A DNA stretch of 64,000 nucleotides from an uncultured bacterium (lineage in GTDB: Bacteria > Fermentibacterota > Fermentibacteria > Fermentibacterales > JCC-6): NCBI GenBank assembly GCA_964624405.1, contig CAZUXA010000005.1, positions 13,376-77,375 on the forward strand. The letters run 5' to 3'. The translations under genes were made by a program, and so were the position numbers. The first letter of the stretch is position 1. Each line of letters begins with the position of its first letter. Positions 6,844 to 56,257 of this stretch are shown here, piece after piece. Under the pieces are notes generated by a model that saw only the letters and a list, made by a program, of their open reading frames with translations, had not been told where the DNA came from and did no database searches.

Positions 6844-6906
6844 GGCTGCAATATGCTTGTAAAAGCCTGGGTTGACGAACGGCGGAAACCCGGTAGAATA
6901 CCATTA

Positions 6907-6924
6907 TTGTGAAAACAGTAACAG
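6907..6924 (+). promoter_or_regulatory. candidate Rex operator half-site (TTGTGAA) upstream of rex; a second TTGTGA at 6944
   Basis: TTGTGAAAACAGTAACAG; only the left half matches the Rex consensus TTGTGAAnnnnTTCACAA well. Confidence 0.2.
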
Positions 6925-6948
6925 CGTTACGGGAAGTACAATGGTTTT

Positions 6949-7605
6949 GTGATAGGTGATGTGATGAGAGAAAAAGCGGTGATAGCAGCGAACACGGTGG
7001 AACGGCTCAGCCTCTATCGAAGGCTTCTCGAGGCATGGCTTGAGAAGGGAACTTCCAGCCTCTACTCCCATCAGATTGCAGCCATGGCCTGCGTGACCCC
7101 CGCCCAGGTTCGAAGGGACCTAATGGCAATAGGATACTCCGGCAGCCCCAACAGGGGCTACTCTGTTGATGCCCTGGAGGAGAGTATCGGCACATTCCTC
7201 GGAAGCGACCGGGTTCGAAAGATCGGCCTGGTTGGCATGGGTAACCTGGGGAGAGCCCTCACCACCTACTTCACTTCCAGGGTTCCACGCTTCAAAATGG
7301 CCGCCGCCTTCGACATCGATCCGAAGAAGACCGGAAGAGTGATCGCCGGATGCATGGTTTACGGTATAGAAATGATCCCGGAGATTATTCCCGCGGAGGG
7401 AATTCGAACCGCGGTGCTGGCGCTTCCCGTCGAGAGCGCCCAGCACATGGCGGACATGCTTGTGAAGGCTGGAATAAAGGGGATTCTGAATTACGCTCCG
7501 GTGCCGCTTCGGTTGCCGGCGGATGTTTTTCTGGAAAACCGGGATGTCACCGCCGCCCTGGAAAAAGTGGCGTTCTTCTCCGGACCTTCCAGTGAAGGGA
7601 AATGA
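6949..7605 (+). CDS. rex: redox-sensing transcriptional repressor Rex
   Basis: Winged-helix N-terminus plus Rossmann NAD(H) domain GLVGMGNLGRAL; typical Rex length (218 aa). Confidence 0.85.
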   Translation: MIGDVMREKAVIAANTVERLSLYRRLLEAWLEKGTSSLYSHQIAAMACVTPAQVRRDLMAIGYSGSPNRGYSVDALEESIGTFLGSDRVRKIGLVGMGNLGRALTTYFTSRVPRFKMAAAFDIDPKKTGRVIAGCMVYGIEMIPEIIPAEGIRTAVLALPVESAQHMADMLVKAGIKGILNYAPVPLRLPADVFLENRDVTAALEKVAFFSGPSSEGK

Positions 7606-7608
7606 TCA

Positions 7609-8085
7609 ATGAGTGAGAGCAGTGTGGAAAAGATCATAGCAAGGTATCCCGGAGCGGAAAGGGACAAACTGATCCCCATTCTCCAGGAAGTCCAGGAATC
7701 CGAAGGTTTTCTGAAGAGGGATGCTGTGGTTCTGATAGGAAAGCACCTTGGTGTTCCCGCCAGCCGCATATACGGAGTGGCAACATTCTACAACCAGTTC
7801 AGATTCGAACCGATCGGCAGATTCCATATACAGGTGTGCAGGGGGACCGCCTGCCATGTGAAGGGCTCTCTGAAGGTTCTGGAGTCACTGAAGAGGGAGA
7901 TCGGAGTGGAACCGGGAAGAACCACCAGGGACGGTCTTTTCAGCATAGAGGTGGTGGCGTGCATAGGAGCCTGCGGGCTTGCCCCGGTCATTTCGATAAA
8001 CGGCGAGTTTCACGCCAAACTTACTCCGGATGATGTTCCGGTTCTGCTGGAAAGCTGCAGGAAGAAAGCCCTGGAGGTGGGATGA
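7609..8085 (+). CDS. hydC: NuoE-like [2Fe-2S] thioredoxin-like subunit of [FeFe]-hydrogenase (HydC/HndA type)
   Basis: CRGTACHVKGS...VVACIGACGLAPV four-Cys [2Fe-2S] motif of NuoE/HoxE family; start 4 nt after rex stop. Confidence 0.85.
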   Translation: MSESSVEKIIARYPGAERDKLIPILQEVQESEGFLKRDAVVLIGKHLGVPASRIYGVATFYNQFRFEPIGRFHIQVCRGTACHVKGSLKVLESLKREIGVEPGRTTRDGLFSIEVVACIGACGLAPVISINGEFHAKLTPDDVPVLLESCRKKALEVG

Positions 8086-10076
8086 TGCCGATAATCCTTG
8101 ACAGATGCTGCGAAAAGTGTTCCCACTCCCAGGCTGAACCCTGCCCAATGGCCATAGAATGTCTGCTGGACGGACCGCTCTGCCACGAAAGCCCCGCTTG
8201 CTCAGAAGCAAGGAACACCTGGAAAAGCAAGGTTCAAAGGTCAGGACTATCTCAGCCTGTTATCTTTGCCGGCGCGGGAACCTGCGGGTTGGGTGCCGGA
8301 GCCGGATCGACCATACAGGCCATCCGGGAGTTCCTTGACACCCGGTCCATTCCATGCACCATTGTTGAAGTGGGCTGCATCGGCCTTTGCGCCGTGGAAC
8401 CCATCGTGGACATCATGCTTCCGGGAAGGGCGAGAGTTTCCTTCGCCGGGGTCACCCACGACAGGGTTTGCGCACTACTGGAATCCATGCTTGAAAGGGG
8501 CGAAGTACCGGAAGACATGGCGCTTTGCCAGTTTACCGGCACGGGAGAAACCTGGAAGGGAGTCCCTCTCTTCAGTGAACACCCGTTTTTCGGCCCTCAG
8601 ACAAGATGGGTTCTGGAAAACTGCGGGACAATGAACCCGGAAAGCCTGGAGGAGTACCTGGCGGCCGGGGGATACCGCGCCTTTGCCGTCACGCTGAGAA
8701 CCCGGACACCGGAAAGCACCTGCGATATCGTTGAAGAAAGCGGTCTTCGGGGCAGGGGCGGAGGCGGCTTTCCCGCCGGCAGAAAATGGCGGTTCGCCCT
8801 GAATACACCATCCGGATCGAAGTATGTGATATGCAACGCCGACGAGGGCGACCCCGGGGCCTTCATGGACAGGGCCGTGATTGAGGGAGACCCCCACAAA
8901 CTGATCGAAGGCATCGCCATAGCCTCCTATGCGGTGGGCGCCAACAAAGCGTACATCTACATACGGGCTGAATACCCCCTGGCGATTCAGAGGCTGAGAA
9001 AGGCTTTGGAACAGGCGGAAAACCAGGGCATTCTTGGAACCAACATTTTCGACAGTGGCTTTGATCTCAACATTGTTATAAAAATGGGGGCGGGCGCCTT
9101 CGTTTGCGGCGAGGAAACCGCTCTCATCCACAGCATAGAAGGTCACCGGGGCATGCCTTCCCCGAAACCGCCTTTTCCCGCGGTAAGCGGTCTGTTCGGA
9201 AAACCAACGGTCATCAACAATGTTGAGACCCTGGCGAATGTGCCCGGCATTCTGAACAACGGTCCGGGTTGGTTCCGCTCCGCGGGCACCGAAAACAGCC
9301 CGGGAACAAAGGTGTTCGCCCTTTCCGGAAAAATCACCAACACCGGCCTCATTGAAGTCGCGATGGGAACCCCCATCCACGACATTCTGTTCAGCATGGG
9401 CGGGGGAATCCCGGACGGAAAGGCGTTCAAGGCGGTACAGATCGGTGGTCCTTCCGGAGGCTGCATCCCCGACGGACATACCGACCTTAGAATAGACTAC
9501 GAATCCCTTGGAGAGTTCGGCGCCATGATGGGCTCCGGGGGGCTTGTGGTCATGGATGAGGACACCTGCATGGTTGATGTAGCCAAGTTCTTCATGGATT
9601 TCATCCAGAGGGAGAGCTGCGGCAAGTGCATTCCCTGCAGGGAGGGGACAAGAAGACTTCTGGAGATACTCAACGCGATTACCCGGGGTTACCGTGACGA
9701 AACCCCGGAACAGGCGCTGGAAAGGTTCAGGGGCATCGTTAATCTGGAAAGGCTTGGACAGGTGATCAGGAAGACCAGCCTCTGCGGTCTGGGCCAGACC
9801 GCGCCGAATCCGGTTCTCAGTACTCTGCGGTGGTTCAGGGATGAGTACGAGGCTCATATTTTTGAACGAAAGTGCCCCGCCGGAGTATGCACCGGCCTGC
9901 TCACATTCTCCATAGACGAGGACGCTTGCCGCGGTTGCACCCTGTGCGCCGGAAAATGCCCTACAGGGGCAGTCAAGGGCGCCCGGAAGAGCCCCCACTA
10001 CATTGTGACCTCCGAATGCATTGGCTGCGGCGCCTGCCTCGAGGTATGTCCCTTCGACGCCGTCAGGGTTCACTGA
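8082..10076 (+). CDS. hydB: NuoF-like flavoprotein subunit of [FeFe]-hydrogenase (HydB/HndC type; NAD(P)H and FMN binding, multiple Fe-S)
   Basis: GRGGGGFPAGRKW NADH/FMN fingerprint, SCGKCIPCREG [4Fe-4S], C-terminal 2x CxxCxxCxxxCP ferredoxin motifs, Cys-rich N-terminal extension. Confidence 0.9.
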   Translation: MMPIILDRCCEKCSHSQAEPCPMAIECLLDGPLCHESPACSEARNTWKSKVQRSGLSQPVIFAGAGTCGLGAGAGSTIQAIREFLDTRSIPCTIVEVGCIGLCAVEPIVDIMLPGRARVSFAGVTHDRVCALLESMLERGEVPEDMALCQFTGTGETWKGVPLFSEHPFFGPQTRWVLENCGTMNPESLEEYLAAGGYRAFAVTLRTRTPESTCDIVEESGLRGRGGGGFPAGRKWRFALNTPSGSKYVICNADEGDPGAFMDRAVIEGDPHKLIEGIAIASYAVGANKAYIYIRAEYPLAIQRLRKALEQAENQGILGTNIFDSGFDLNIVIKMGAGAFVCGEETALIHSIEGHRGMPSPKPPFPAVSGLFGKPTVINNVETLANVPGILNNGPGWFRSAGTENSPGTKVFALSGKITNTGLIEVAMGTPIHDILFSMGGGIPDGKAFKAVQIGGPSGGCIPDGHTDLRIDYESLGEFGAMMGSGGLVVMDEDTCMVDVAKFFMDFIQRESCGKCIPCREGTRRLLEILNAITRGYRDETPEQALERFRGIVNLERLGQVIRKTSLCGLGQTAPNPVLSTLRWFRDEYEAHIFERKCPAGVCTGLLTFSIDEDACRGCTLCAGKCPTGAVKGARKSPHYIVTSECIGCGACLEVCPFDAVRVH

Positions 10077-10082
10077 GGAAGG

Positions 10083-11804
10083 TTGATGATGAAACTCACC
10101 ATAAACGGAAAAACAGTGGAAGCAAGGAATGGTGAAACCATTCTTGAAGCGGCGAGAAAGATTGGTCTGGATATTCCCACACTGTGTCACATGGAAGGTC
10201 TGGCGCCGACGGGGACATGCCGGGTCTGCGTGGTGGAAGACAGGAAAACCGGAAAACTCATACCTTCCTGCTCCTACCCCGCGGCGGAGGGAATGGAAAT
10301 CGCCACTCACTCCAATCAGGCTGTGGCAGCCCGGAAAACCATTATCGAGCTGCTTCTGGCCTCCCACCCTGACGATTGCCTGTACTGCCCCGGAAACGGC
10401 ACCTGTGTTCTCCAGCGCTACGCGCAGGAACTTGGCGTGAGGCAGAGAAGCTACTCCGGAGCCAGAAACCGGATCAATCTTGATGTCTCCAGCCCATCCA
10501 TAATCAGGGATCCGGAGAAGTGCATACTCTGCGGAAGATGCGTCAGGGTCTGTTCCGAAGTGCAGGGAGTGAGCGCCATAGATTTCACAGGAAGGGGAAG
10601 CGGCGCACAGGTGGCATGCGCCTTTGACGAGGGCCTGAATATTTCCAGCTGCGTTAACTGCGGACAGTGTGTGATGGTGTGCCCCACCGGCTCACTCACC
10701 GAGCGCAGGGATGTGGAACGGGTGATGAAAGCCCTTGACGATCCTGAAGTTACTGTGGTGGTTCAGCATGCTCCTGCGGTATCTGTAAGCCTTGCGGAGG
10801 AGTTCGGCTTGAAGCCCGGAAGCGACATCGTAGACAAGATGAACGCGGCCTTTCGTCGCATGGGGTTCGACAGTGTGTTCCCCACCAGCTTCAGCGCGGA
10901 CCTCACCGTAATGGAAGAAGCCAATGAGCTTGTGCAGCGAGTCAGAAACGGTGGCCCGTTTCCCATGTTCACCAGTTGTTCTCCGGGCTGGATCAAATTC
11001 CTGGAGGAGTTCCACCCGGAGATGCTGGGAAACGCATCCACCTGCAAGAGTCCCCAGCAGATGATGGGCGCGGTGATCAAACGACTCTGGGCTCCGGCAA
11101 ACAACCTTGACCCCCGGAAAGTCTTCAGCGTTTCGATAATGCCCTGCACCGCCAAAAAGTTCGAGGCGGCAAGGCCCGAAATGGGCGGGGACACCCAGGA
11201 TGTGGACGCGGTACTCACCACCCGGGAACTCGCGGAACTGATCAGGATTTTTGGAATCGACATAGCCATGCTCGAAGGCGAACCAGCGGACAGCCCCTTC
11301 GGGGACAGGAGTTCCGCGGGCAAGCTGTTCGGTGCATCGGGAGGCGTAATGGAGGCCGCGGCCAGAACGGCCTTTCACATGCTTACCGGCGAAAATCTGG
11401 CGGAGTTGAAGCTGGACGAGGTAAGAGGTCTTGACGAAGTGAAGGAAACCACGCTGCTCATCAACGGGCTTGAGTTAAGGGTCGCGGTGGTGAGCGGCCT
11501 CGGAAATGCCGGAAGACTGCTGAAAGACATCATTGCCGGAAAACGCACGTATCACTTCGTTGAAGTCATGTCATGCCCGGGAGGATGCATCAACGGCGGT
11601 GGCCAGCCATACCTTACAAACCCCGAGAGGGTCAGGGCGAGAATGCAGACCCTGTACGAAATCGACAGAAACGCAAGCCTCAGGGTCGCCCACGAAAACC
11701 CCTCCATCAAGGCCCTGTACAGGGATTTTCTGGAAGAACCGGGAAGCGAAAGGGCGCACCATCTTCTTCACACGGAGTACACCGCCCGGGAGGTGCTCAG
11801 GTAA
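10083..11804 (+). CDS. hydA: [FeFe]-hydrogenase catalytic subunit (HydA) with N-terminal 2Fe-2S and 4Fe-4S domains; L1 motif reads TSCSPGW
   Basis: Plant-type 2Fe-2S CHMEGLAPTGTCRVC; H-cluster L2 MPCTAKKFE and L3 EVMSCPGGCINGGGQP present; L1 FTSCSPGW (Ser at the second Cys position). Confidence 0.9.
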   Translation: MMMKLTINGKTVEARNGETILEAARKIGLDIPTLCHMEGLAPTGTCRVCVVEDRKTGKLIPSCSYPAAEGMEIATHSNQAVAARKTIIELLLASHPDDCLYCPGNGTCVLQRYAQELGVRQRSYSGARNRINLDVSSPSIIRDPEKCILCGRCVRVCSEVQGVSAIDFTGRGSGAQVACAFDEGLNISSCVNCGQCVMVCPTGSLTERRDVERVMKALDDPEVTVVVQHAPAVSVSLAEEFGLKPGSDIVDKMNAAFRRMGFDSVFPTSFSADLTVMEEANELVQRVRNGGPFPMFTSCSPGWIKFLEEFHPEMLGNASTCKSPQQMMGAVIKRLWAPANNLDPRKVFSVSIMPCTAKKFEAARPEMGGDTQDVDAVLTTRELAELIRIFGIDIAMLEGEPADSPFGDRSSAGKLFGASGGVMEAAARTAFHMLTGENLAELKLDEVRGLDEVKETTLLINGLELRVAVVSGLGNAGRLLKDIIAGKRTYHFVEVMSCPGGCINGGGQPYLTNPERVRARMQTLYEIDRNASLRVAHENPSIKALYRDFLEEPGSERAHHLLHTEYTAREVLR

Positions 11805-13823
11805 ATGGCGGTACAGATAGACCCGCTGGTGCAGTCAGTTCCCGAGAAATGCAAGGTATGCTATACATGCGTCAGGGAATGCCCCGCCAAGGCCATCAGG
11901 ATACTGGACGGGCAGGCCGAGGTGGTGGCGGAACGGTGTATTGGATGCGGCAACTGCGTCAAGGTCTGTACCCGGGGGGCCAAGAAGGCCAGGGTGAACA
12001 TTTCCGATGTGAAAACACTCCTGGAATCCGGCCGAAGGGTGGCTGCGGTTGTAGCCCCGAGTTTTCCCGCCGAGTTCCCGGACATACCTCCAAAAAAGCT
12101 TGTCGGCATGCTTATCAGGCTTGGTTTTCATCCGGTGACGGAAGTAGCTTTCGGCGCCGATATGGTGGCCCACGCATACCGGGAGCTCCTCAGAAAAAAC
12201 CCTGACCGGCAGTACATCGCAGTGAACTGCCCCGCGGTTGTGACTTACATCGAGAAGTACATGCCACAACTGGTGCCGTATCTGGCCCCGATCGTCTCTC
12301 CCATGACCGCGGAAGCCAGGGTGGTGAGAACCTTCTATGGAGAGGATACCGCCGTGGTGTTCATCGGACCCTGCATCGCAAAGAAGGATGAAGCTCCCGA
12401 TGAGTTGGACCAGGTTCTCACATTCATCGAACTCAGGGAGCTCTTCGCCGAGAAGGGCATCACCCCGGATGGAGTGGAGGAAGCACAGTTCAATCCTCCA
12501 AGCCCGGGTCTCGGCGCCATCTTTCCCATCAGCGGAGGAATGCTTCAGGCGGCGGACATGAAGGAGGATCTCGTTGCGGGAGACATAGTCACCGCCGAGG
12601 GAAGGGCGGGGTTTCTCGAAGCCCTCAAGGAGTTTGAGAACGACGATATGGACCCGAGGCTTCTTGAACTCCTGTGCTGTGACGGCTGCATCATGGGGCC
12701 CGGAATGTCCAGCAAAGCTCCGATTTTCAGAAGAAGGGCAAAAATAAGCCATTATGCCAGATCCAGGCTCAACGAAATCAACTTCAACAACTGGAATGTG
12801 GCCATGGACCGCTCCAGCGCCATCAATCTTGACAGAACCTTCAGTGAGAAGGACACAAGGCTAACCTCTCCAGGAGAAGAGGATGTTCAGGACATTCTCT
12901 GCAGGATGGGCAAGTCCACTCCGGAGGATGAGCTGAACTGCGGGGCCTGCGGTTACGACACATGCAGGGAACACGCGGTGGCGATTCTGAAAGGCCTTGC
13001 GGAAAGCGAAATGTGCCTTCCCTACGCCATAGACCAACTGAAACTCACGGTGGATGAGCTTGCCGGCACCAGGGTCGCCCTCAAACATGCGGAAAAGATG
13101 GCGGGAATGGGCCAGCTGGCCGCGGGAATAGCCCACGAGGTGAACAACCCGCTGGGAGTGGTTCTCATGTATGCCCACACACTTCTGGATGAACGGGCGA
13201 AGGAAGACCCTGAGCTGGCCGAAGACCTGAAAACCATAGCGGCACATGCGGACAGGTGCAAGAAAATCGTGGCTGGCCTGCTGGATTTCGCCAGACAGAA
13301 CAAGGTGTCCCGCAGGGATACTGATCTGCCGGTGTTCGCGTCGAAAGTGGCCGGCGATCTCCCCAGACCAGTGGGAGTTGAGCTTCTGGTTGAGAACCGG
13401 ATGAAAGACCCGATGGTGAGCGTTGACGACGACCAGTTCGCCCAGGTTGTGATAAACCTGGTTCAAAATGCCTACCAGGTTATGAATGAAGGCGGGAAGC
13501 TTGTTCTTTCTTTCGAAGACAGAGACAACAGAGTGATAATGAAGGTCACCGACAACGGCGCGGGAATAAGCCCGGAGAACATGAAGAAAATCTTCGAGCC
13601 CTTTTTCACAACCAAACCCAGGGGCAAGGGTACCGGGCTGGGGCTGGCGGTGACCTATGGAATTGTCAAGATGCACCGTGGGAGCATAACGGCGGTTTCC
13701 AACATCGACCCCGAAAAGGGTCCAACAGGAACCACGTTCACCGTAACCCTTCCCAGAAGGGTAAGCGAGGAAGAGGGAAGGAACCACAATGGAGCGGAAT
13801 CTGACCATACTGCTGGTGGATGA
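11805..13823 (+). CDS. sensory [FeFe]-hydrogenase-like (HydS-type) H-cluster domain fused to a histidine-kinase transmitter (HisKA + HATPase)
   Basis: Two N-terminal 4Fe-4S ferredoxin motifs; H-domain with L1-like VNCP, L2-like GPCIAKKDE, L3-like ELLCCDGCIMG; Cys cluster C-x14-C-x2-C-x4-C; H-box HEVNNPLG, N-box NLVQNAYQ, G1 DNGAGI, G2 GTGLGLAV. Confidence 0.8.
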   Translation: MAVQIDPLVQSVPEKCKVCYTCVRECPAKAIRILDGQAEVVAERCIGCGNCVKVCTRGAKKARVNISDVKTLLESGRRVAAVVAPSFPAEFPDIPPKKLVGMLIRLGFHPVTEVAFGADMVAHAYRELLRKNPDRQYIAVNCPAVVTYIEKYMPQLVPYLAPIVSPMTAEARVVRTFYGEDTAVVFIGPCIAKKDEAPDELDQVLTFIELRELFAEKGITPDGVEEAQFNPPSPGLGAIFPISGGMLQAADMKEDLVAGDIVTAEGRAGFLEALKEFENDDMDPRLLELLCCDGCIMGPGMSSKAPIFRRRAKISHYARSRLNEINFNNWNVAMDRSSAINLDRTFSEKDTRLTSPGEEDVQDILCRMGKSTPEDELNCGACGYDTCREHAVAILKGLAESEMCLPYAIDQLKLTVDELAGTRVALKHAEKMAGMGQLAAGIAHEVNNPLGVVLMYAHTLLDERAKEDPELAEDLKTIAAHADRCKKIVAGLLDFARQNKVSRRDTDLPVFASKVAGDLPRPVGVELLVENRMKDPMVSVDDDQFAQVVINLVQNAYQVMNEGGKLVLSFEDRDNRVIMKVTDNGAGISPENMKKIFEPFFTTKPRGKGTGLGLAVTYGIVKMHRGSITAVSNIDPEKGPTGTTFTVTLPRRVSEEEGRNHNGAESDHTAGG

Positions 13824-14178
13824 CGACCAGGATTACATCGAACAGATGAGGCTGATGCTGGAGACCGGAGGTTACACCGTTCACACATGCATCACCAGGG
13901 AGAAGGCCGAGGAGCTCCTCGGGACGATGAAGCCGGATATTGCGGTAATCGACCTGATGATGGAGCAGAACGACGACGGATTTGTTCTGGCCTACCGGCT
14001 CAAGAAGAAGTACCCCGATGTGCCTGTGATCATGGTGACCGCCGTTACCAGTGAAACCGGAATCGATTTTACATCAGCACCGGACACCGGAGGCTGGATG
14101 AAAGCCGATGCCCTGCTGCAGAAACCGGTTCGGTTCGAGCAACTGGAAGCCCAGATAAAACGGTTGTGCCATGGATAG
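13789..14178 (+). CDS. single-domain response regulator (CheY-like receiver)
   Basis: LLVDDDQDY, phospho-acceptor context AVIDLMM, VTAVT, LQKPV (Lys-Pro). Confidence 0.8.
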   Translation: MERNLTILLVDDDQDYIEQMRLMLETGGYTVHTCITREKAEELLGTMKPDIAVIDLMMEQNDDGFVLAYRLKKKYPDVPVIMVTAVTSETGIDFTSAPDTGGWMKADALLQKPVRFEQLEAQIKRLCHG

Positions 14179-15307
14179 GGAAATGACGCTGAAGCTTCTG
14201 GTGGTTGATGACGAAACCGGAATGCGCATGGGTATCCGCCGTGCTCTGAGGAACTTTCAGAGTGAGCCGGACGACACCGGCCTGATTGTCAGGCTGTCGG
14301 TTGAAGAGGCGGAAAGCGGTGAACAGGCCATCGAAAAGATAAAGGACTCCCCTCCGGATATTGTTCTGCTTGACCACAGGATGGGGGGAATAACCGGGCT
14401 CGATGTGCTGAACTGGATGGAGGACAACAGCCCGGATGTTCTTGCCATAATGATAACCGCCTACGCATCGCTGGAAAACGCCATAAACGCCACAAAAAAA
14501 GGAGCTTTCGACTTCCTTCCAAAACCCTTTACCCCTGCCGAACTCAAGGTTGCGGTGAGACAGGCGGTGAAGCACGTTCTGGCGGTTCGTGAAGCCAAAA
14601 GGCTCTCCGAAGAGAAACGGAGGGTTCGATTCCAGTTCATCAGCGTTCTCGCTCACGAGCTGAAGGCCCCCCTGGGGGCCATTGAGGGATATCTCTACCT
14701 GCTTCAGGACGGAACGGCTCTCAGTAATCCGGAAACACTTCCAAGGGTTGTGGAAAGAAGCCTCGTCAGGCTTCAGGGCATGAGAAAACTGATCTATGAC
14801 CTTCTCGACCTTACCAGGATCGAAAGCGGAGAAAAGAAGAGGGAGCTGGCGGAGGTTGATGTGGTGCAGGCGGCGAATGCCAGCGTTGAAACCATGGCGC
14901 CGGACGCGGCTTCCCGGGGAATTGAAATCGTGTTGAACGCGCCTGAGCACCTTCCCATGCTTGGTGATCGGAGCGAACTGGAGATCATTCTGAACAACCT
15001 GGTATCCAACGCCGTTAAGTACAACCGTGACAATGGAAAAGTTACGGTTACCCTGACGGAATCTCCGGAGGATGTGACCATTTCGGTTGCCGATACCGGA
15101 ATCGGTATGACCGAAGAGGAGAGGGAGCGGCTTTTCGGCGAGTTCGCAAGGATCAAGAACGAGAAGACCCGCAACATTCTGGGCAGCGGCCTGGGGCTCA
15201 ACATTGTAAAGCGGATAGCCGGGCTCTACGAAGGCAGCGTGACTGTGGAGAGCACGCCTGACGCCGGAAGCACCTTCACGGTAACACTCAAGAAGGCACT
15301 GGCATGA
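14171..15307 (+). CDS. hybrid receiver/histidine kinase (REC-HisKA-HATPase), no sensor domain
   Basis: N-terminal REC (LLVVDDE...IVLLDHRM...FLPKPF), H-box SVLAHELKAPLG, N-box NLVSNAVKYN, G boxes DTGIGM / GSGLGLNIV. Confidence 0.8.
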   Translation: MDREMTLKLLVVDDETGMRMGIRRALRNFQSEPDDTGLIVRLSVEEAESGEQAIEKIKDSPPDIVLLDHRMGGITGLDVLNWMEDNSPDVLAIMITAYASLENAINATKKGAFDFLPKPFTPAELKVAVRQAVKHVLAVREAKRLSEEKRRVRFQFISVLAHELKAPLGAIEGYLYLLQDGTALSNPETLPRVVERSLVRLQGMRKLIYDLLDLTRIESGEKKRELAEVDVVQAANASVETMAPDAASRGIEIVLNAPEHLPMLGDRSELEIILNNLVSNAVKYNRDNGKVTVTLTESPEDVTISVADTGIGMTEEERERLFGEFARIKNEKTRNILGSGLGLNIVKRIAGLYEGSVTVESTPDAGSTFTVTLKKALA

Positions 15308-15358
15308 GTTGGGTTCCCGCCCGGGCGCTGTGGATCCGGCCTCTCTGATTAGAAATCC

Positions 15359-15820
15359 CTACAGACCCAGGCCGATTCCCGCTGACAGAACCCAGTTGTG
15401 GTTTTCGTCGGAGCCGTATACATGCCGATAGCATCCCATGGTGCCTGTCACCAGGTGTACTCTCATCCGCAGTTCCGCGCCGGCATAGGTCTGGTTCCTT
15501 TCCAGGTGCCCCCAGGTCTTGCCCCAGGTCCGCATTACCGCCGCGGTAAGCTCAGTGTAGAAGATGTCCGTAAAAAACATGCTGAAGGCAAATCGACCTC
15601 CGGCGTGAAGCTTTCCCCCTCCCAGGCCGGGCTCCACCCTGAAAACAAGCCCCGTCCGGGGAGCACCCCATATCGAGGAACTTTTCATTGTGGCAATTCC
15701 GAAGGAAGCGTTGACGATCTGGGGTGTAGTAACCTGCAGACTTACAGTGGGAGTAAATGGAAGAGGCCGGGCAAGGCCGGCGGAGAACAGCAGCGTCAAC
15801 AGCGGCAATGCTGTTCGCAT
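15359..15820 (-). CDS. hypothetical secreted protein, possibly a small outer-membrane beta-barrel
   Basis: Signal peptide MRTALPLLTLLFSAGLA; alternating hydrophobic pattern; no recognisable enzymatic motif. Confidence 0.4.
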   Translation of the reverse strand: MRTALPLLTLLFSAGLARPLPFTPTVSLQVTTPQIVNASFGIATMKSSSIWGAPRTGLVFRVEPGLGGGKLHAGGRFAFSMFFTDIFYTELTAAVMRTWGKTWGHLERNQTYAGAELRMRVHLVTGTMGCYRHVYGSDENHNWVLSAGIGLGL

Positions 15821-20086: not shown

Positions 20087-23000
20087 TCAAGGCGAATCCG
20101 TGCTCCAGAAAGCAGGCCTGGTCGTTGAGACTCCCCTGGTTTCCAAAACCTCGATGAGTTGCCGGTAATCTTCAAGCATGCCCTGCTTGATTCGGTGCCT
20201 CTCCACATGAAGCCTGAGTTGGTCGCAGAGCGTCTCCGCTTCCTTCAGTCTGTCCAGTTCAACGAGAAGAAGTCCTTTTACCCCCATGGCGTAGGCGGTG
20301 TTGAGAACATCGTTGGTCAGGGCGTTGATTCTGAGTGATTCGTTCGCGCTCTCCATGGAGCCGTCGAAATCTCCGGTCATCCGCTGAATGTTCGCCTTGT
20401 TCACAAGGGCGATGGCAACGGTGCGGTAATTCCTGGTACGGCTTGCCAGCTCAATGGAGGCATCGGTGAATTCCATGGCTTCCCGGATGTTCCCGCGTTT
20501 TTTGGCAAGCAGGCCAAGGTTTCCGAGAAGCGTGGATTCATGGATTCTGTCTCCGGTTTTTCGCGAGGCATCAAGGGCCTCGAGGAAGAGTTCCTCGGCT
20601 CTTTCGAAACGCTCACGCCTGGCGCAGGCAATGGCGAGGCTGTTGAGGGAGTACCCCAGACCCAGAAGGTTACCCTGCTTTTTCTGGAGTCTGATGGCCT
20701 TTTCTGCGTAGCTTGCGGAAAGGGCGTCTTCGCCGAACCTGAAGGCGTGAACCGCCATGTTGGAATAGAGTGATGCCGCTTCGGGCTCCATGCCGTGTTT
20801 TTCCATCACATCCGTGGCTTCCCTGTACAGATCCATGACTCCTTCTGTGATGCCGGTGCTGCTTCTGTAGTTTGCCAGAGTCATGTTTATCTTCGCGGCG
20901 AGTATCTCATTCCTGCCCGCGAGGGCAATCTTCATGGCTTCTTCGATGGTGCTTTCAAACTCGGGGTTTCTTCCCAGTTCCTGAAGTACGGCAGCCCGGG
21001 CACGCAGGGCGATGCCCTCCCATGCGAGGCTGTTTTTCTCCCTTGCTTCCGAGGCAATCCGGTCGGCGGTGCGTATGGCATCCTCGTGTTCGCCCTTTCT
21101 CTTGAGAATCTCATGCCAGACCAGAAGGGCGTTCATTCTTTCCTCCCAGTACCGGTCATCCCCGGCTTTTCCGGCAAGTTCCATAATGCGCTTCGCGAAT
21201 CCCAGGGTTTCTTCGGGCCGTCCTCCATCCCTGGCTGTCATCATTGCCCTGCTTGCCCATTCCAGGGATTTCTTCCAGTCCTGCGCCGCTTCCCAGTGGG
21301 CGAACAGCACCGGCGCCAGGGCATCGAGCTCGGTGGGGTTCAGTTGCTCTATTGATTCCGCGGCGGCCTTGTGCAGAATTCTGGAATTGTGTTTCAGCAG
21401 TGTTTCGTAAGCGGCAACCCTGACCAGGGAGTGACGGAAGCTGAATGATTTGCCGTCTGCCCCGGAAAGAAATCCCCTGTTTTCCAGGTTGAGGAGTATC
21501 TCGCCGAGATTGTCCCCCAGCTCGGATACACGCCTCACCATCGAATCAAGAACCGTTGTCTCGAATCTTTCGCCAAGGACGGAAGCATACTGCAGGATTC
21601 TTCTCTCCTGTTTCGGAAGCCTGTCCATTCTGGCCTGAGTGAGAACCGAGATCGACCCCGGGATTTTTACCTGGTCGCAGGAAAGAGAAAGGGTGCAGCA
21701 ATCGTCGCTGTTCCTCAGTATGCCGTCGGATTCAATGAGGCTCAGCACGAGTTCCTCGACAAAGAAAGGGTTACCCCGGCCCACGGAGCGTATCAGGCGT
21801 TTGAGTTCGTCGTCCAGAAGGTCTGTCTGCAGGAGGTAAGCCGCAATGGAGAGACAGTCGTCATCACTCAGAGGCTCCAGATAAATTGTGTTCACCGACA
21901 GGGAGGGGTTCAGCAGAACAGGAGCCGGCAGACGGGTTGTCATGATTATTCCCGCGGGCTGGATAAAAAGGCCCTGGCTGAGAATGTCTTGCAGAAGCCT
22001 CATGGAGAGCTCATCCGCCCACTGAAGATCTTCCAGAAGAAGCAGGGTTCCCGAGGTGGAGAACACCGCTTCCAGGGCGGAACGGACTGTGTTGGTAACG
22101 GTGCTGAACTCCGGGGAGAAGTTTTCAAAGCCCGTGGCATCCATGCTCAGAATAGCCGCGAGTTGAGGGGCGCAGCTTTCCAGAACCGTTCTCGGCCTTT
22201 CCTCTCCGCAACTGGCGGCAAGCTCTTTGATTCCGGCTTGGTACCATTCGGCGGTTTCGCCCCCGGGGCTCCCGGCGTTGAAGTAGCCCCGCAGCAGGCT
22301 TATCCACAGCCAGCAGGAAGGCTGGGCGTGGGATAGGGCGTAGCCCCGCAGCACCCTGTACTCGCCCAATGAAACGATGCATTCGTGGGCCAGGCGGGAT
22401 TTCCCTATGCCCGGGTCTCCCACCATGATGAAAACCGGTGGTTCGCAGGCACTCAGGCCCGTGGGTTTCAGGGCTTTCCCTATGGATTCTCTGACCCTTG
22501 ATCTTCCGACAAAAGGCGCCCCATAAAGCCTGGAAGCCCGTTCCCACCTCTCGAACCGGATTTTGCCGGGACCGGTGGGCTCGAAAGAGGCCACCGGCGA
22601 ACTGATGCCGCGAATAGCCACTTTCCCGGTATCGATCCAGGTGTACAACTCTCCGCACTCGCGCCTGACCGCCTCGCTGACCAGAGCGGTTCCCGGGCTG
22701 CCAGACTCTTCCAGCCTGGAGGCAAGATTAACCGTAAGCCCGGTGGCGGTCAAATGGCCGGACGGGTCGGGAGCCACGGTCAGAGGGCCGAAATCGATGC
22801 CTATCCTGGCGGATAGGCCTGGAAACTCCGGCAAAGCCGGGCGAAGCTCGTCCAGAAGATCGAGCATGCGCAGAGCGCAACCAACGGCTCTGGCGCTGTC
22901 GTTCTCCGTGGAGGCTATGGCTCCGAACAGAGCCATCAGCCGGTCTCCCTCGAATTTGTCAACATAGCCGCCGCAGGAGTTTACCACCCTGGAGAGAAGG

Positions 23001-23239
23001 CCCATAACCCGTCCAAGAAGGACATGCAGATCTTCATGGTCAATTGCTTCCGAAAGCAGAGTGAAGCCGGTCAGGTCCAGAAAAAGAACCGCGGCCCGCC
23101 GTCTCTCACCTTCGATGATCCTGGATGTTTCTCCGCACGGGAAAAATGTGTTTCCCGGAACCCTTGCAAGGGCGTCGTCCAGAACGGAGGAAACCCGATC
23201 CATGGAAATACGGCTCGCCAGAGTCGTCCCTCCGTTCAT
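20087..23239 (-). CDS. class III adenylate/guanylate cyclase domain + STAND/AAA ATPase + TPR repeats signalling protein (1050 aa)
   Basis: Cyclase motif AVLFLDLTGFT...KFEGDRLMALFG; P-loop VGDPGIGKS; long C-terminal TPR-like helical repeats. Confidence 0.75.
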   Translation of the reverse strand: MNGGTTLASRISMDRVSSVLDDALARVPGNTFFPCGETSRIIEGERRRAAVLFLDLTGFTLLSEAIDHEDLHVLLGRVMGLLSRVVNSCGGYVDKFEGDRLMALFGAIASTENDSARAVGCALRMLDLLDELRPALPEFPGLSARIGIDFGPLTVAPDPSGHLTATGLTVNLASRLEESGSPGTALVSEAVRRECGELYTWIDTGKVAIRGISSPVASFEPTGPGKIRFERWERASRLYGAPFVGRSRVRESIGKALKPTGLSACEPPVFIMVGDPGIGKSRLAHECIVSLGEYRVLRGYALSHAQPSCWLWISLLRGYFNAGSPGGETAEWYQAGIKELAASCGEERPRTVLESCAPQLAAILSMDATGFENFSPEFSTVTNTVRSALEAVFSTSGTLLLLEDLQWADELSMRLLQDILSQGLFIQPAGIIMTTRLPAPVLLNPSLSVNTIYLEPLSDDDCLSIAAYLLQTDLLDDELKRLIRSVGRGNPFFVEELVLSLIESDGILRNSDDCCTLSLSCDQVKIPGSISVLTQARMDRLPKQERRILQYASVLGERFETTVLDSMVRRVSELGDNLGEILLNLENRGFLSGADGKSFSFRHSLVRVAAYETLLKHNSRILHKAAAESIEQLNPTELDALAPVLFAHWEAAQDWKKSLEWASRAMMTARDGGRPEETLGFAKRIMELAGKAGDDRYWEERMNALLVWHEILKRKGEHEDAIRTADRIASEAREKNSLAWEGIALRARAAVLQELGRNPEFESTIEEAMKIALAGRNEILAAKINMTLANYRSSTGITEGVMDLYREATDVMEKHGMEPEAASLYSNMAVHAFRFGEDALSASYAEKAIRLQKKQGNLLGLGYSLNSLAIACARRERFERAEELFLEALDASRKTGDRIHESTLLGNLGLLAKKRGNIREAMEFTDASIELASRTRNYRTVAIALVNKANIQRMTGDFDGSMESANESLRINALTNDVLNTAYAMGVKGLLLVELDRLKEAETLCDQLRLHVERHRIKQGMLEDYRQLIEVLETRGVSTTRPAFWSTDSP

Positions 23240-53845: not shown

Positions 53846-54660
53846 CCCCGTCGCTCGCGGCGGTGATTCCGTCCAGGAACGGTCTGAAGCTTCTTCAGAG
53901 GCTGTTGCCGGTGCTGCTTGAGGAAGGGCTCGGAGAAATCGTGGTGGTGGATGACAATTCTGAAGACGACACCGTGGAGTTCGTCCGAAGAAGCTATCCC
54001 GGAGTCAGGCTGATCAGCAGATCGGGCCCCCCGGGGTTCTGCCATGCGGTTAACCTGGGCATGGCGGAGGCCTCATCCGAAATGCTTCTGCTCCTGAACA
54101 ACGATGTGATGCCTGAAGGCGGCTGCCTGTCCGGAATGGCGTCAATGCTGGACGGCTCACAGAAACGGGTCGCCGTGGTGGTACCCAGAATCACAAGACC
54201 TGACGGAACCGACGACGGCTCTTATCAGTGGGGTTTTCGCAGGGGTCTGGCATTCACCGCCCCCGGCGCCGGACATTCCTACCCCTCCGGGGCGTGCGCA
54301 CTGTGGAGAAAAAGCGCGTGGATCAGCCTGAAAGGGCTGAGTTCCCGTTACGCCCCGATATACTGGGAAGACGCGGACCTGGGAGCAAGGCTCGCCGGGT
54401 CCGGCATGAGCATGAGCAGATTCTCCGGTCCGGGAGTGTTCCACGATCACGGGGCAACCATGGGGGTCAGCCTTGAAAGCCAGGTTCTCAGGGAAAGGAA
54501 CCGTTTCATATTCATGGATTCCTGGTGCTCAACCCCGGCCATGCGCTTTTCCACCCTGGCATGGCTTCCTGTTCACATGCTGACATCGGCATTGAAAGGA
54601 AACCCGGCGTTCGTCATGGGATATCGCAGCTACCGGAAGTGGAAGCATGGCAGCCGGTAA
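53842..54660 (+). CDS. glycosyltransferase family 2
   Basis: AAVIPSRNGL...VVVDDNSEDDT and DAD/ED motifs. Confidence 0.75.
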   Translation: MTPSLAAVIPSRNGLKLLQRLLPVLLEEGLGEIVVVDDNSEDDTVEFVRRSYPGVRLISRSGPPGFCHAVNLGMAEASSEMLLLLNNDVMPEGGCLSGMASMLDGSQKRVAVVVPRITRPDGTDDGSYQWGFRRGLAFTAPGAGHSYPSGACALWRKSAWISLKGLSSRYAPIYWEDADLGARLAGSGMSMSRFSGPGVFHDHGATMGVSLESQVLRERNRFIFMDSWCSTPAMRFSTLAWLPVHMLTSALKGNPAFVMGYRSYRKWKHGSR

Positions 54661-56257
54661 GAAGTACGCCTTCGGAGTTGAAGCCCTGGCTGGGCTTGTT
54701 GCCGGGGCCTCTGCCCTGGCGGCTCTGGTGGTGGTAATGGTCCTTTTTCTTCTCGTAAGGGAAAACACCAGGTGGTCCAACTCGCTGGCAACCGGGGTCG
54801 CGGCCCGAATCGCCGTGGAAATCGGAACTCAGCCGGATCAGGCGGGTCTCGAAGCGGCATGCAGAGGGCTCGTTCCTTCGGACGGACTGGCAACCGCGGT
54901 CTACCTGGACAGTCTGGGCGAGCCTCTGTTTGCCTATCCCGAGTTCAGTCATGACCGTTTCAACCGGTCGGAATGGGTTTTTGTCCCGGCGCGCACCACA
55001 GGGACAATCGGTGTTCTGCCGGCGAAACCGCCAGTAGTTGCCCTGGCGGGGCCGGTTCTGGCCGCGCTTGCCTTCATATGCCTCGCCCTGGCGATCACCG
55101 CACTCATGATGCCAGCTTACCTCCGATCCAGGGTTATTGACCCGCTGAGAAATCTGCTGCTGGAAGCGGATCGCTATAGAAGCGGAAGCGGAACCAGTCC
55201 CGGAGCGGCTTCGGTTTCATTTCATGAACTCGTTACATTGCTCTCCGAAAAGGAAAGGGAACTGGATACCCTTCGAATACAGGCGGTGGCCAGGGCTGAG
55301 CTGGCGGAAAGCAGGGCGGGAGCGGTACTGGAAACCCTGGACTCCGCGGTTGCGGCCCTGGATTCATCGGGAAGGGTCATACTATGGAACGCCCGGGCGT
55401 CGGAGCTCTTCGGCCTTTCCGAAGAGGATCGGGGAAACCCCTTTCCCCGGGAAAGAACCCCGATTGCCGGGGGAGCCGATTATCCTAAAGGTGAAGTGGC
55501 TTTCCGGGGAAGGGCATACAGGGTAAAAACCCTGGCCCATTCCAACGGTGAAATGATTTTGACCGCCACGGACATAACCGATGCCCTTCAAATGGAAAGA
55601 CGGCTTGCGGAGGAGAGGTACCTTGCGGACCTGGGAGCTTTTTCCGGCGGGGTCGTGCATGAGATAGGCAATACCCTCTGCGCCATGAAGGGCTTTTTGG
55701 AGCTTCTTTCCAGGGGAATGGACGATTCCAGAACAGGAAGGATAATGGCCGAGGCCAGGCTTGAACTTGATGCCGCCAGCGGAGTCGTAGATGCCTTCAG
55801 AACCCTCGCAGGAAGGGAAGGCCCGGAGTTCACCCTGGTATCCGCCGGGGATCTGGCCGCTTCCATCGGGGATGAATGCTCTGGAAGCGGCGTTCCATTC
55901 GTCTCCCGGGACATCTGCGACGGCAGGATTCGTACCGATGCGGTGCTGCTTGCCAGATGCGTAAGGAACCTTCTGGACAACGCCCTTGAGTATTGCCCTC
56001 CGGAAGATATCCGGGTGACAATGACCTGCTCGAATCAGCTTGTCATTCAGGTCTCCGACTCCGGTCCCGGCCTTCCGGAACCTCCCGACATTGTCTTCCG
56101 TCCCCTATACTCCACCGGACGAGAGAAGGGTCACATGGGAATAGGGCTTACTGTAAGCCGGCGCATTATTCTGGCCATGGGTGGCGAAATCGAGCCTCAA
56201 AACACAGGGAAGGGAGCTTCCTTTGTGATAACCCTGCCCCGGGAGGATCGGATTTGA
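54647..56257 (+). CDS. membrane sensor histidine kinase (NtrY/AtoS-like)
   Basis: Two TM helices; H-box VHEIGNTLCAMKG; N-box LDNALEY; G boxes DSGPGL / GIGLTVSRRI. Confidence 0.8.
   Translation: MAAGKKYAFGVEALAGLVAGASALAALVVVMVLFLLVRENTRWSNSLATGVAARIAVEIGTQPDQAGLEAACRGLVPSDGLATAVYLDSLGEPLFAYPEFSHDRFNRSEWVFVPARTTGTIGVLPAKPPVVALAGPVLAALAFICLALAITALMMPAYLRSRVIDPLRNLLLEADRYRSGSGTSPGAASVSFHELVTLLSEKERELDTLRIQAVARAELAESRAGAVLETLDSAVAALDSSGRVILWNARASELFGLSEEDRGNPFPRERTPIAGGADYPKGEVAFRGRAYRVKTLAHSNGEMILTATDITDALQMERRLAEERYLADLGAFSGGVVHEIGNTLCAMKGFLELLSRGMDDSRTGRIMAEARLELDAASGVVDAFRTLAGREGPEFTLVSAGDLAASIGDECSGSGVPFVSRDICDGRIRTDAVLLARCVRNLLDNALEYCPPEDIRVTMTCSNQLVIQVSDSGPGLPEPPDIVFRPLYSTGREKGHMGIGLTVSRRIILAMGGEIEPQNTGKGASFVITLPREDRI

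Follow-up and report, generated by a model that had tools for sequence, protein, structure and literature searches.

In HydDB, the subtypes of group C are defined by the regulators linked to them, and they include the sensory [FeFe] hydrogenases named 'C1 histidine kinase-linked (putative)' (PMC5037454). A survey from 2024 placed in group C3 the 'BfuT' proteins, which carry either a PAS or a histidine-kinase domain, and reported that the kinase type adjoins bfuA in the sub-type V clusters of Hydrogenedentota and in Caldithrix abyssi, with WP_006928132.1 as the HydDB hit (PMC11406978). In reviews, group C still appears simply as a set of PAS fusions whose role is putative, and only TmHydS and TamHydS have been characterised, neither of which holds a kinase (PMC13104023, PMC8163306). 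The locus described here was found in an uncultured bacterium of the Fermentibacterota (lineage JCC-6), in a stretch of 64,000 nucleotides (nt) hereafter called the window (GenBank assembly GCA_964624405.1, contig CAZUXA010000005.1, positions 13,376 to 77,375 of the forward strand). Window positions 6949-15307 probably encode a Rex-controlled [FeFe] hydrogenase operon of the Bfu/HydABC type that carries its own H2-signalling module at its 3' end, a reading of moderate confidence.

The likeness to BfuT lies in an H-domain fused to a histidine-kinase domain, the gene for which comes directly after bfuA/hydA of a trimeric Bfu hydrogenase, and loci from Hydrogenedentota and Calditrichota (L023, L026, L031, and L040) are among the relatives retrieved here. 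The BfuT paper is a genomic catalogue in which the terms 'response regulator' and 'Rex' have no occurrence, and it is silent on the stand-alone receiver, the receiver-kinase hybrid, the Rex operator, the C-terminal cluster, the linker, and the residue pattern (PMC11406978). The original prediction, made from the sequence of this DNA, had called the arrangement 'not a described system', which is too strong, since the kinase-linked or kinase-fused type is present in HydDB (PMC5037454) and was described as BfuT (PMC11406978). Its statement that the fused sensor/kinase proteins are uncharacterised holds, as the literature searched contains no biochemical study of any member. Neither does that literature report the conserved receiver-kinase hybrid and receiver, the heptad-quantised linker, the Cx2C variant of the L3 motif, or the Rex operator.

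Seven co-directional genes with tiny or overlapping junctions had been predicted, and a check of the open reading frames (ORFs) returned the coordinates, strand, and junctions as claimed; the domain architecture proposed for all seven proteins was matched by Pfam and NCBIfam profiles. The genes are the following (aa, amino acids; REC, receiver domain; HK, histidine kinase):

6949..7605, plus strand: rex, redox-sensing repressor (NCBIfam NF003995, 197 bits against a cut-off of 126; PF06971, PF02629)
7609..8085, plus strand: hydC, NuoE-like [2Fe-2S] subunit (PF01257, 4e-51; NuoE and HoxE models)
8082..10076, plus strand: hydB, NuoF-like flavoprotein subunit of 664 aa (Pfam, NCBIfam)
10083..11804, plus strand: hydA, catalytic subunit of a group A [FeFe] hydrogenase (NCBIfam FeFe_hydrog_A6, 799.5 bits against a cut-off of 765)
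11805..13823, plus strand: hydS-HK, sensory [FeFe]-hydrogenase core fused to a histidine-kinase transmitter, 672 aa (Pfam, AlphaFold2 model)
13789..14178, plus strand: REC1, stand-alone receiver (D55) of 129 aa, PhoB/MtrA/OmpR-like, with no output domain (PF00072 only)
14171..15307, plus strand: REC-HK, 378 aa, with receiver REC2 (D68), HisKA (H162), and HATPase (Pfam, NCBIfam)

The junctions comprise gaps of 3 nt (rex/hydC) and 6 nt (hydB/hydA), overlaps of 4 nt (hydC/hydB), 35 nt (sensor-HK/REC1), and 8 nt (REC1/REC-HK), and no nucleotide at all between hydA and the sensor-HK gene. The true start of rex is possibly the in-frame ATG at 6964.

The protein encoded at 11805..13823 is built from these parts:

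11835..11981, plus strand: F-domain with two [4Fe-4S] clusters, residues 11-59 (matches to Fer4 families; cysteines invariant in alignment A1)
12036..12701, plus strand: H-domain, residues 78-299 (PF02906, Fe_hyd_lg_C, 1.8e-43; residues mapped to CpI numbering)
12939..13016, plus strand: C-terminal Cx2Cx4Cx16C [4Fe-4S] motif with C379, C382, C387, and C404 (PF04060, residues 377-406)
13017..13133, plus strand: helical signalling linker of 40 residues, C404 to H444 (Cys-to-His distances; helical in the AlphaFold2 model)
13110..13757, plus strand: AtoS/ZraS-like transmitter with HisKA (436-498, H444) and HATPase_c (541-651) (Pfam, NCBIfam)

Its membership in the hydrogenase H-domain family, a point on which the original prediction depended, is borne out by the PF02906 match and by Foldseek, in which the top matches of the model are [FeFe] hydrogenases (E ~1e-20, ~430 columns); the model's pLDDT score exceeds 90 throughout the H-domain, and the HisKA/HATPase motifs are present. 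To compare individual residues, the protein was mapped to CpI by means of the PDB sequence and an alignment that combined 41 sensors with 31 adjacent HydA proteins. MAFFT aligns C142 under CpI C299, and this Cys was equated with CpI C300 because it precedes an invariant Pro. The H-cluster ligands C142, C190, C292, and C295 (CpI C300, C355, C499, and C503) are conserved in all 41 sensors, as are K193 (K358), E196 (E361), and P166 (P324), while F240 (F417) is kept in 39 of them. The Cys ligands, K193, and E196 are likewise invariant in alignment A1, which spans several phyla. This invariance argues, at the level of residue conservation, that the [2Fe] site is maintained.

The residues around the cluster differ from those of a catalyst. 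The position of CpI C299 is occupied by Asn in the window sensor and by Thr, Ser, or Asn across the family, the equivalents of the group A proton-pathway residues E279, S319, and R286 are not conserved, and the equivalents of M353 and M497 are a Gly (G188) and a Leu (L290), both invariant in the 41 sensors. This pattern of substitution is the one described for TmHydS and TamHydS (PMC8163306, PMC10055695). The Cx2Cx4Cx16C motif, found in 80 of 81 relatives, has been reported for the M2e and M2f classes of HydS (PMC8163306). By its residue pattern, then, the second H-domain of the operon is a HydS-type sensor core rather than a catalyst, and the description of it as 'non-catalytic-looking' proved apt, with the ligands kept and the proton-relay residues lost or replaced. 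A feature peculiar to the kinase-fused sensors is the L3 motif (window residues 291-295, 12675-12689), which reads [C/A/S]-C-x-G-C with only the second Cys invariant, so that the ligands are spaced as Cx2C (CxGC), in contrast to the Cx3C (Cx2GC) spacing of group A and of the PAS-type relative. No PAS domain was matched in the sensor, in which 31 residues separate the end of PF04060 (406) from the start of HisKA (436).

The loss of the proton-relay residues also bears on the proposal that the H-domain protein is a fourth, catalytic or electron-transfer 'T subunit' of HydABC, with the kinase part regulating the enzyme itself. The name BfuT was given to it as a subunit (PMC11406978), its gene follows that of hydA with a junction of zero nt, and a study of Cloacimonadota brought up the possibility that a group C1 enzyme encoded in a bifurcating cluster has a metabolic role. 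However, besides the missing relay, the transmitter is complete, a dedicated receiver-kinase partner is conserved, and the HydS enzymes that have been characterised show low turnover (PMC8163306), all of which makes this proposal highly improbable.

As for the connection between the sensor core and the kinase, 131 non-redundant sequences were used to measure the distance from the last cluster Cys to the phospho-accepting His. Of these, 121 have 47 residues, nine (the window sensor included) have 40, and one has 49. As the two main lengths differ by exactly one heptad, the linker statistics point to a continuous coiled-coil signalling helix running from the C-terminal cluster domain to the dimerisation and histidine-phosphotransfer (DHp) bundle. 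In the AlphaFold2 monomer the linker helices are predicted with low confidence, as expected of a dimeric element. The transmitter (HK1), whose best PDB match is ZraS (9jfj, 2.7e-30), holds intact catalytic residues: H444 in AHEVNNPL, N551/N555, D583xGxG, FEPFFTTK, and G609TGLGL.

The module is not confined to the window, and the fused sensor architecture is common. Genome and metagenome scans gave more than 580 and more than 560 matching loci, respectively, and 80 loci were kept from each; all 160 lie in metagenome-assembled genomes (MAGs) or metagenome contigs. The best 120 database clusters hold proteins of 650-695 aa with the same domain set, at 55-100% identity, annotated only as 'histidine kinase' or '4Fe-4S binding protein'. 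The genome loci kept bear the labels of ~18 phyla, namely Fermentibacteria, Planctomycetota, Myxococcota, Hydrogenedentota, Bacteroidota, Acidobacteriota, Fibrobacterota, Lentisphaerota, Calditrichota, Elusimicrobiota, Sumerlaeota, Nitrospirota, Gemmatimonadota, Eisenbacteria, Marinimicrobia, Desulfobacterota, Bdellovibrionota, and others. The window itself groups with Fermentibacteria-like MAGs, its sensor being 83-86% identical to homologues in several assemblies and 65% identical to those of Candidatus Fermentibacteria and Sabulitectum, with syntenic flanks.

Neighbourhoods were counted in 152 non-redundant loci, of which 107 have enough downstream sequence and 81 have sequence on both sides. 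REC-HK follows the sensor in 99 of the 107 (93%), and a stand-alone receiver is encoded in the cluster in 80 of the 107 (75%), mostly placed between the kinases, although in some loci it precedes the sensor or comes after REC-HK. NuoF, HydA, sensor, and REC-HK occur together in 55 of the 81 loci, and the complete seven-gene set, in the same gene order, in 36 of them, which rules out chance adjacency of the seven genes. In a first set of 56 loci, HydA adjoins the sensor upstream in 46 and Rex occurs in 37; across loci, hydA and the sensor gene lie a median of 24.5 nt apart. In Bacteroidota, rex is placed after the relay and not before hydC.

Some of these loci show additional sensors or fusions. 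A second HydS-type sensor stands beside the kinase-fused one in L057 (2343-4190), L065 (1287-3137), L062 (523-2229), and L074 (1668-3269). Those of Bacteroidota and Elusimicrobia agree with it in the core, and a PAS domain was detected in two of them (L062 and L065) but not in the third (L057), while that of a Hydrogenedentota locus is an N-terminal HATPase_c_2 domain fused to a truncated H-domain protein. In L029, from a Myxococcota MAG, a receiver is fused to a formate/nitrite transporter (7667-8956) directly upstream of the sensor-HK gene. This unusual fusion of receiver and channel, in a setting linked to hydrogen and formate, adjoins a 209-aa protein for which no domain but a receiver was detected.

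In the proteins that follow the sensor, the catalytic residues are all present. REC1 has its acidic and catalytic residues (D11, D12, D55, T84, and K112), as has REC2 (D13, D14, D68, T96, and K118), and the kinase of REC-HK (HK2) has H162 and the N, G1, and G2 boxes; within REC-HK, the receiver spans residues 10-129, HisKA 155-220, and HATPase 265-375. The best family matches pair in a particular manner. HK1 matches AtoS and ZraS, and REC2 matches AtoC, NtrC, and LuxO, while HK2 matches PnpS, PhoR, and WalK, and REC1 matches MtrA, PhoB, and OmpR. In addition, the first DHp helix of the sensor is almost invariant from H-4 to H+8 (153 sequences), and HK2 is variable at H+7 and at H+14 to H+17. 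Conservation at the helix-1 interface positions is 0.93, 0.77, 0.80, 0.95, and 0.47 in REC2, and 0.97, 0.46, 0.81, 0.19, and 0.26 in REC1. Because REC-HK is the constant partner, the DHp/REC2 interface is conserved, and the family types agree, a path from the sensor-HK to REC2 of REC-HK, and then through HK2 to REC1, is favoured, although chances that this predicted order is correct are about even. The order HK to REC to REC-HK, suggested in the original prediction, is not the best supported, given that REC-HK is present in 93% of the loci and REC in 75%, and that the family types pair otherwise.

That order, or a branched version of it, belongs to an alternative in which the sensor HK phosphorylates the stand-alone REC directly, as an output or as a phosphate sink, and REC-HK represents a parallel branch or a phosphatase-type modulator. 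The genes are ordered HK, REC, REC-HK in most loci, and L009, L023, and L074 keep REC in the absence of REC-HK. Moreover, the modulation of kinases by single-domain receivers, such as DivK, is a known principle. Nevertheless, REC-HK is far more constant than REC, whose position varies from before the sensor to between the kinases or after REC-HK, the helix-1 interface of REC1 is variable while the DHp helix of HK1 is nearly invariant, and the family types join HK1 to REC2 and HK2 to REC1. No fusion of sensor and receiver is found in 164 loci either; the apparent ones in L045 and L058 are ORF-calling artefacts in GC-rich DNA. With these data, direct phosphorylation of the stand-alone REC is a possible arrangement, though the less probable one. 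Mutual information between kinases and receivers (with average-product correction, 84 non-redundant loci) is dominated in all four DHp/receiver comparisons by the same few clade-marker columns, so that coupling is not separable from phylogeny and this statistic says nothing about specificity.

Signal transduction through a sensor-HK, REC-HK, and REC1 relay would proceed in four steps. First, H2 at the slow, non-catalytic H-cluster would shift the redox or the conformational state of the core. Second, as the linker statistics suggest, the change would reach the DHp bundle by way of the C-terminal cluster domain and the rigid helix, shifting the balance between autokinase and phosphatase activities. 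Third, in line with co-occurrence and family types, the phosphoryl group would be transferred to the NtrC-like REC2, which would switch on the PhoR-like kinase core in the way LvrA switches on LvrB. Fourth, and this is the weakest step, HK2 may phosphorylate the stand-alone PhoB-like receiver or an unlinked regulator. As REC1 lacks an output domain, it would act on its target by protein-protein contact.

Several observations weigh against an H2-signalling module of this kind. Partners were assigned by family resemblance only, with covariation being uninformative, and 25% of the loci have no stand-alone REC nearby. With regard to the sensor, no HydS protein is known to signal in vivo, and none fused to a kinase has been purified. 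The L3 spacing of the family, CxGC instead of Cx2GC, is unusual, and M497L impairs the insertion of [2Fe] in prototypical enzymes (PMC10055695), yet TamHydS carries Leu at that position (PMC8163306). The C-terminal cluster of TamHydS is unresponsive to H2 (PMC13104023), which makes a redox relay through this cluster doubtful.

The last three points, that is, the non-canonical L3 spacing, the Leu at the M497 position, and the insensitivity of the TamHydS cluster, also speak for a protein that senses redox state or electron flux rather than H2. Its FeS chain would then equilibrate with ferredoxin or HydABC, the H-cluster site would be vestigial or structural, and the kinase would report the reducing power of the cell. 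The three accessory [4Fe-4S] clusters fit this explanation, and the 2024 survey struggled to find H-cluster motifs in some group C proteins (PMC11406978). However, the four Cys ligands and the equivalents of K358, E361, P324, and F417 are invariant or nearly so in the 41 sensors, the gene lies almost always beside a hydrogenase and often beside maturases, and both TmHydS and TamHydS bind an H-cluster despite similar substitutions (PMC8163306, PMC10055695). A redox sensor in place of an H2 sensor is consequently considered unlikely.

Transcription of the operon appears to be controlled by its first gene product. Two elements were located upstream of rex:

6872..6899, plus strand: sigma-70-like promoter TTGACG-16-TAGAAT (consensus scan)
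6907..6924, plus strand: Rex-operator-like box TTGTGAAAACAGTAACAG, 7 nt after the -10 hexamer, with three mismatches to TTGTGAA-N4-TTCACAA

Both promoter hexamers are kept at the orthologous position in L001, L005, and L086 of the Fermentibacteria clade, and the -35 hexamer also in L004/L087. The window Rex box is not significant on its own, as nine of 100 shuffles reach as many matches. In the family, boxes with up to three mismatches occur within 250 nt in 38 of 78 operon heads, versus 26 of 1560 random windows of the same loci (~29-fold), and those with up to two mismatches in 22 of 78 versus six of 1560. Promoter and box also keep their position in relatives with sensor identities of 65-84%. 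The window box was accepted because of this family-wide enrichment and orthologous conservation. In this lineage the right half-site reads GTAACAG, and a perfect palindrome, GTAAC-AGC-GTTAC (6918-6930), which is kept in L001 and L004/L087, overlaps the right half of the box; this palindrome is possibly a further operator, or else a Rex half-site particular to the lineage. That Rex controls bifurcating hydrogenases has been established in Caldicellulosiruptor (PMC8579813). With a conserved putative operator at its promoter, the operon, including the relay, is probably transcribed according to the NADH/NAD+ ratio, through Rex, and most likely it is derepressed when this ratio rises.

The H2-sensing relay would act on top of Rex control, through an output that is not encoded as a DNA-binding domain in the locus. 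The earlier statement that the locus has no DNA-binding output regulator therefore stands as far as response regulators are concerned, but not in full, because Rex itself binds DNA and has a conserved putative operator. No recurrent DNA-binding response regulator was found, with NtrC-type regulators nearby in only eight of 152 loci, mostly of Planctomycetota and Myxococcota, and no DNA-binding output family is among the 25 families listed from 145 ORFs that lie beyond the relay. In the window just one DNA-binding response regulator was found, an NtrC-type sigma-54 activator (REC, Sigma54_activat, HTH_8) that follows a PAS histidine kinase (54647-56257) in the plus-strand region 54647-57504. 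This regulator (~56.2-57.5 kb) was rejected as the output of the relay, since it adjoins its own PAS kinase and lies 40 kb away.

Regarding the hydrogenase, the three subunits of the Bfu/HydABC type are present: HydA, a NuoF-like HydB with extra FeS domains, and a NuoE-like HydC. The best PDB match of HydA is the bifurcating HydA1 of T. kivui (8a6t, 1e-185), and its L2 and L3 motifs are canonical. In HydB, profile searches identified an N-terminal CCxxC prefix, Complex1_51K, NADH_4Fe-4S, and two C-terminal [4Fe-4S] clusters, and residues 64-661 align near full-length with the B subunits of bifurcating Bfu enzymes (7q4v_B from A. woodii and 7t2r_B, E ~1e-210). Judged from its subunits, HydABC is a trimeric Bfu-type enzyme. 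Subunit profiles and Bfu matches bear out the trimeric architecture that had been proposed; the NCBIfam label of HydA is 'NADH-dependent, group A6', and bifurcating and NADH-only activities are indistinguishable from sequence. The P1 motif of HydA (10971-10991, residues 297-303) reads TSCSPGW, in which Ser takes the position of the CpI cluster ligand C300, versus TSCCPGW. The same motif is found in 49 of 63 HydA proteins adjoining kinase-fused sensors and in the active HydA1 of A. woodii (7q4v), and that of T. kivui HydA1 is TSCCPSW.

The operon is flanked upstream by genes for a peroxiredoxin, a HAD hydrolase, and a divergent diacylglycerol-kinase-like protein, and downstream by convergent small ORFs and a NYN-domain gene. 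As these are unrelated to it, the operon is taken to end at 15307. In its closest relative, L001, a secreted arylsulfotransferase-like protein of 691 aa (13592-15667) is encoded between REC-HK and a convergent ORF of 149-153 aa; this insertion is absent from the window (ORF 15359-15820, minus strand) and represents a local indel at the operon 3' end. Further away, the minus strand at 20087-23239 encodes a 1050-aa protein with an adenylate/guanylate cyclase domain, an AAA_16 ATPase, and TPR repeats.

Genes for the maturases HydE, HydF, and HydG were not found among the candidate window ORFs scanned. In the family, a Pfam scan of the 145 ORFs downstream of the relay identified Radical_SAM in 30 and BATS in 18, often hydE/hydG-like, besides Rex, FAD synthetase, and miscellaneous families. 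Radical-SAM and BATS genes of the hydE/hydG-like type directly follow REC-HK in L013, L021, L024, L031, L054, L076, and others, so that in those lineages the module sits between the structural and the maturation genes.

A more ambitious and rather doubtful version of the H2-signalling module is a self-contained cascade from H2 to phosphorylation, whose terminal receiver would act post-translationally, for example on HydABC or Rex. If this were true, H2 partial pressure and the NADH/NAD+ ratio would be integrated at a single operon, by a device common to ~18 mostly uncultured phylum-level lineages, and the cascade would be the first pathway of [FeFe]-based H2 signal transduction to give a direct enzymatic readout. 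TmHydS and TamHydS have no measurable enzymatic output, and their sensory role is still termed putative (PMC13104023). A sensor-kinase fusion whose partners are encoded next door makes H2 signalling accessible to standard phosphorylation assays. HydABC has this module beside it in many anaerobes that have not been cultured, among them Fermentibacteria, Planctomycetota, Hydrogenedentota, Bacteroidota, and Myxococcota, and the fermentative release of H2 in sediments and digesters may therefore be under its control.

Compared with the two HydS proteins that have been characterised, the window sensor shares features with each of them. TmHydS from Thermotoga maritima (group C, M2f) has the same F-domain, H-domain, and C-terminal four-Cys cluster, has also lost C299, has Gly at M353, and likewise adjoins a group A hydrogenase; the window core is, in addition, 39% identical to the PAS-type HydS core of the Elusimicrobia locus L062. 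However, TmHydS ends in a PAS domain and has no kinase, while in the window sensor HisKA-HATPase comes directly after the cluster domain. The PAS domain that follows the C-terminal cluster and defines M2f/group C in most descriptions is thus absent from the window sensor. The two also differ at position 299 (Ala in TmHydS, Asn, Ser, or Thr in the fused family), at 497 (Ser versus Leu), and at 417 (Tyr versus Phe), and the Cx2C spacing at L3 sets the fused family apart from TmHydS. TamHydS from Thermoanaerobacter mathranii (group D, M2e) shares with the window sensor the lack of a PAS domain, the Leu at M497, and the Cx2Cx4Cx16C cluster. It is encoded in a bifurcating hydrogenase operon with a separate gene for a histidine-kinase-like ATPase nearby, but has no fused output domain, and holds Ser at M353 where the fused family has Gly.

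The same logic, a slow hydrogenase that serves as an H2 sensor and controls a histidine kinase, is found in the [NiFe] systems HupUV-HupT-HupR and HoxBC-HoxJ-HoxA (HydDB group 2b). In these systems the sensor and the kinase are separate proteins that make contact via a PAS-like region, and the cluster encodes, as the output, an NtrC-type DNA-binding regulator. Their metal site is unrelated, and there is no homology to the window sensor. In the window locus there are no [NiFe] subunits, the kinase is fused instead of separate, and no DNA-binding response regulator is encoded, so the comparison drawn in the original prediction is valid as an analogy of logic and not as one of descent.

For the second half of the module, the counterpart is LvrB from Leptospira, the prototype of the Rec-controlled histidine kinases, which the upstream kinase LvrA activates and which in turn phosphorylates LvrC (PMC13269768). 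LvrB and REC-HK have the same size and the same architecture (receiver, helix, DHp, and catalytic ATP-binding domain), with D56 and H161 in LvrB corresponding to D68 and H162 in the 378-aa REC-HK. Like LvrB, REC-HK is placed beside an upstream kinase, and heptad-quantised signalling helices are also a feature of the LvrB class (PMC13269768). A close sequence relationship was discarded, because LvrB is absent from the PDB matches at E<=1e-25 and only the architecture is shared. The downstream partners differ as well, being a Rec-anti-sigma protein in LvrA-LvrB-LvrC and, as the candidate in the window locus, a bare receiver only.

Finally, with respect to transcriptional control, the locus resembles the Rex-regulated bifurcating hydrogenase operons of Firmicutes, such as those of Caldicellulosiruptor, in which Rex is likewise combined with an operator of the TTGTGAA-N4-TTCACAA type at the HydABC promoter. 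It differs from them in that rex heads the operon (in Bacteroidota it comes last) and shares it with the putative H2-sensor relay.

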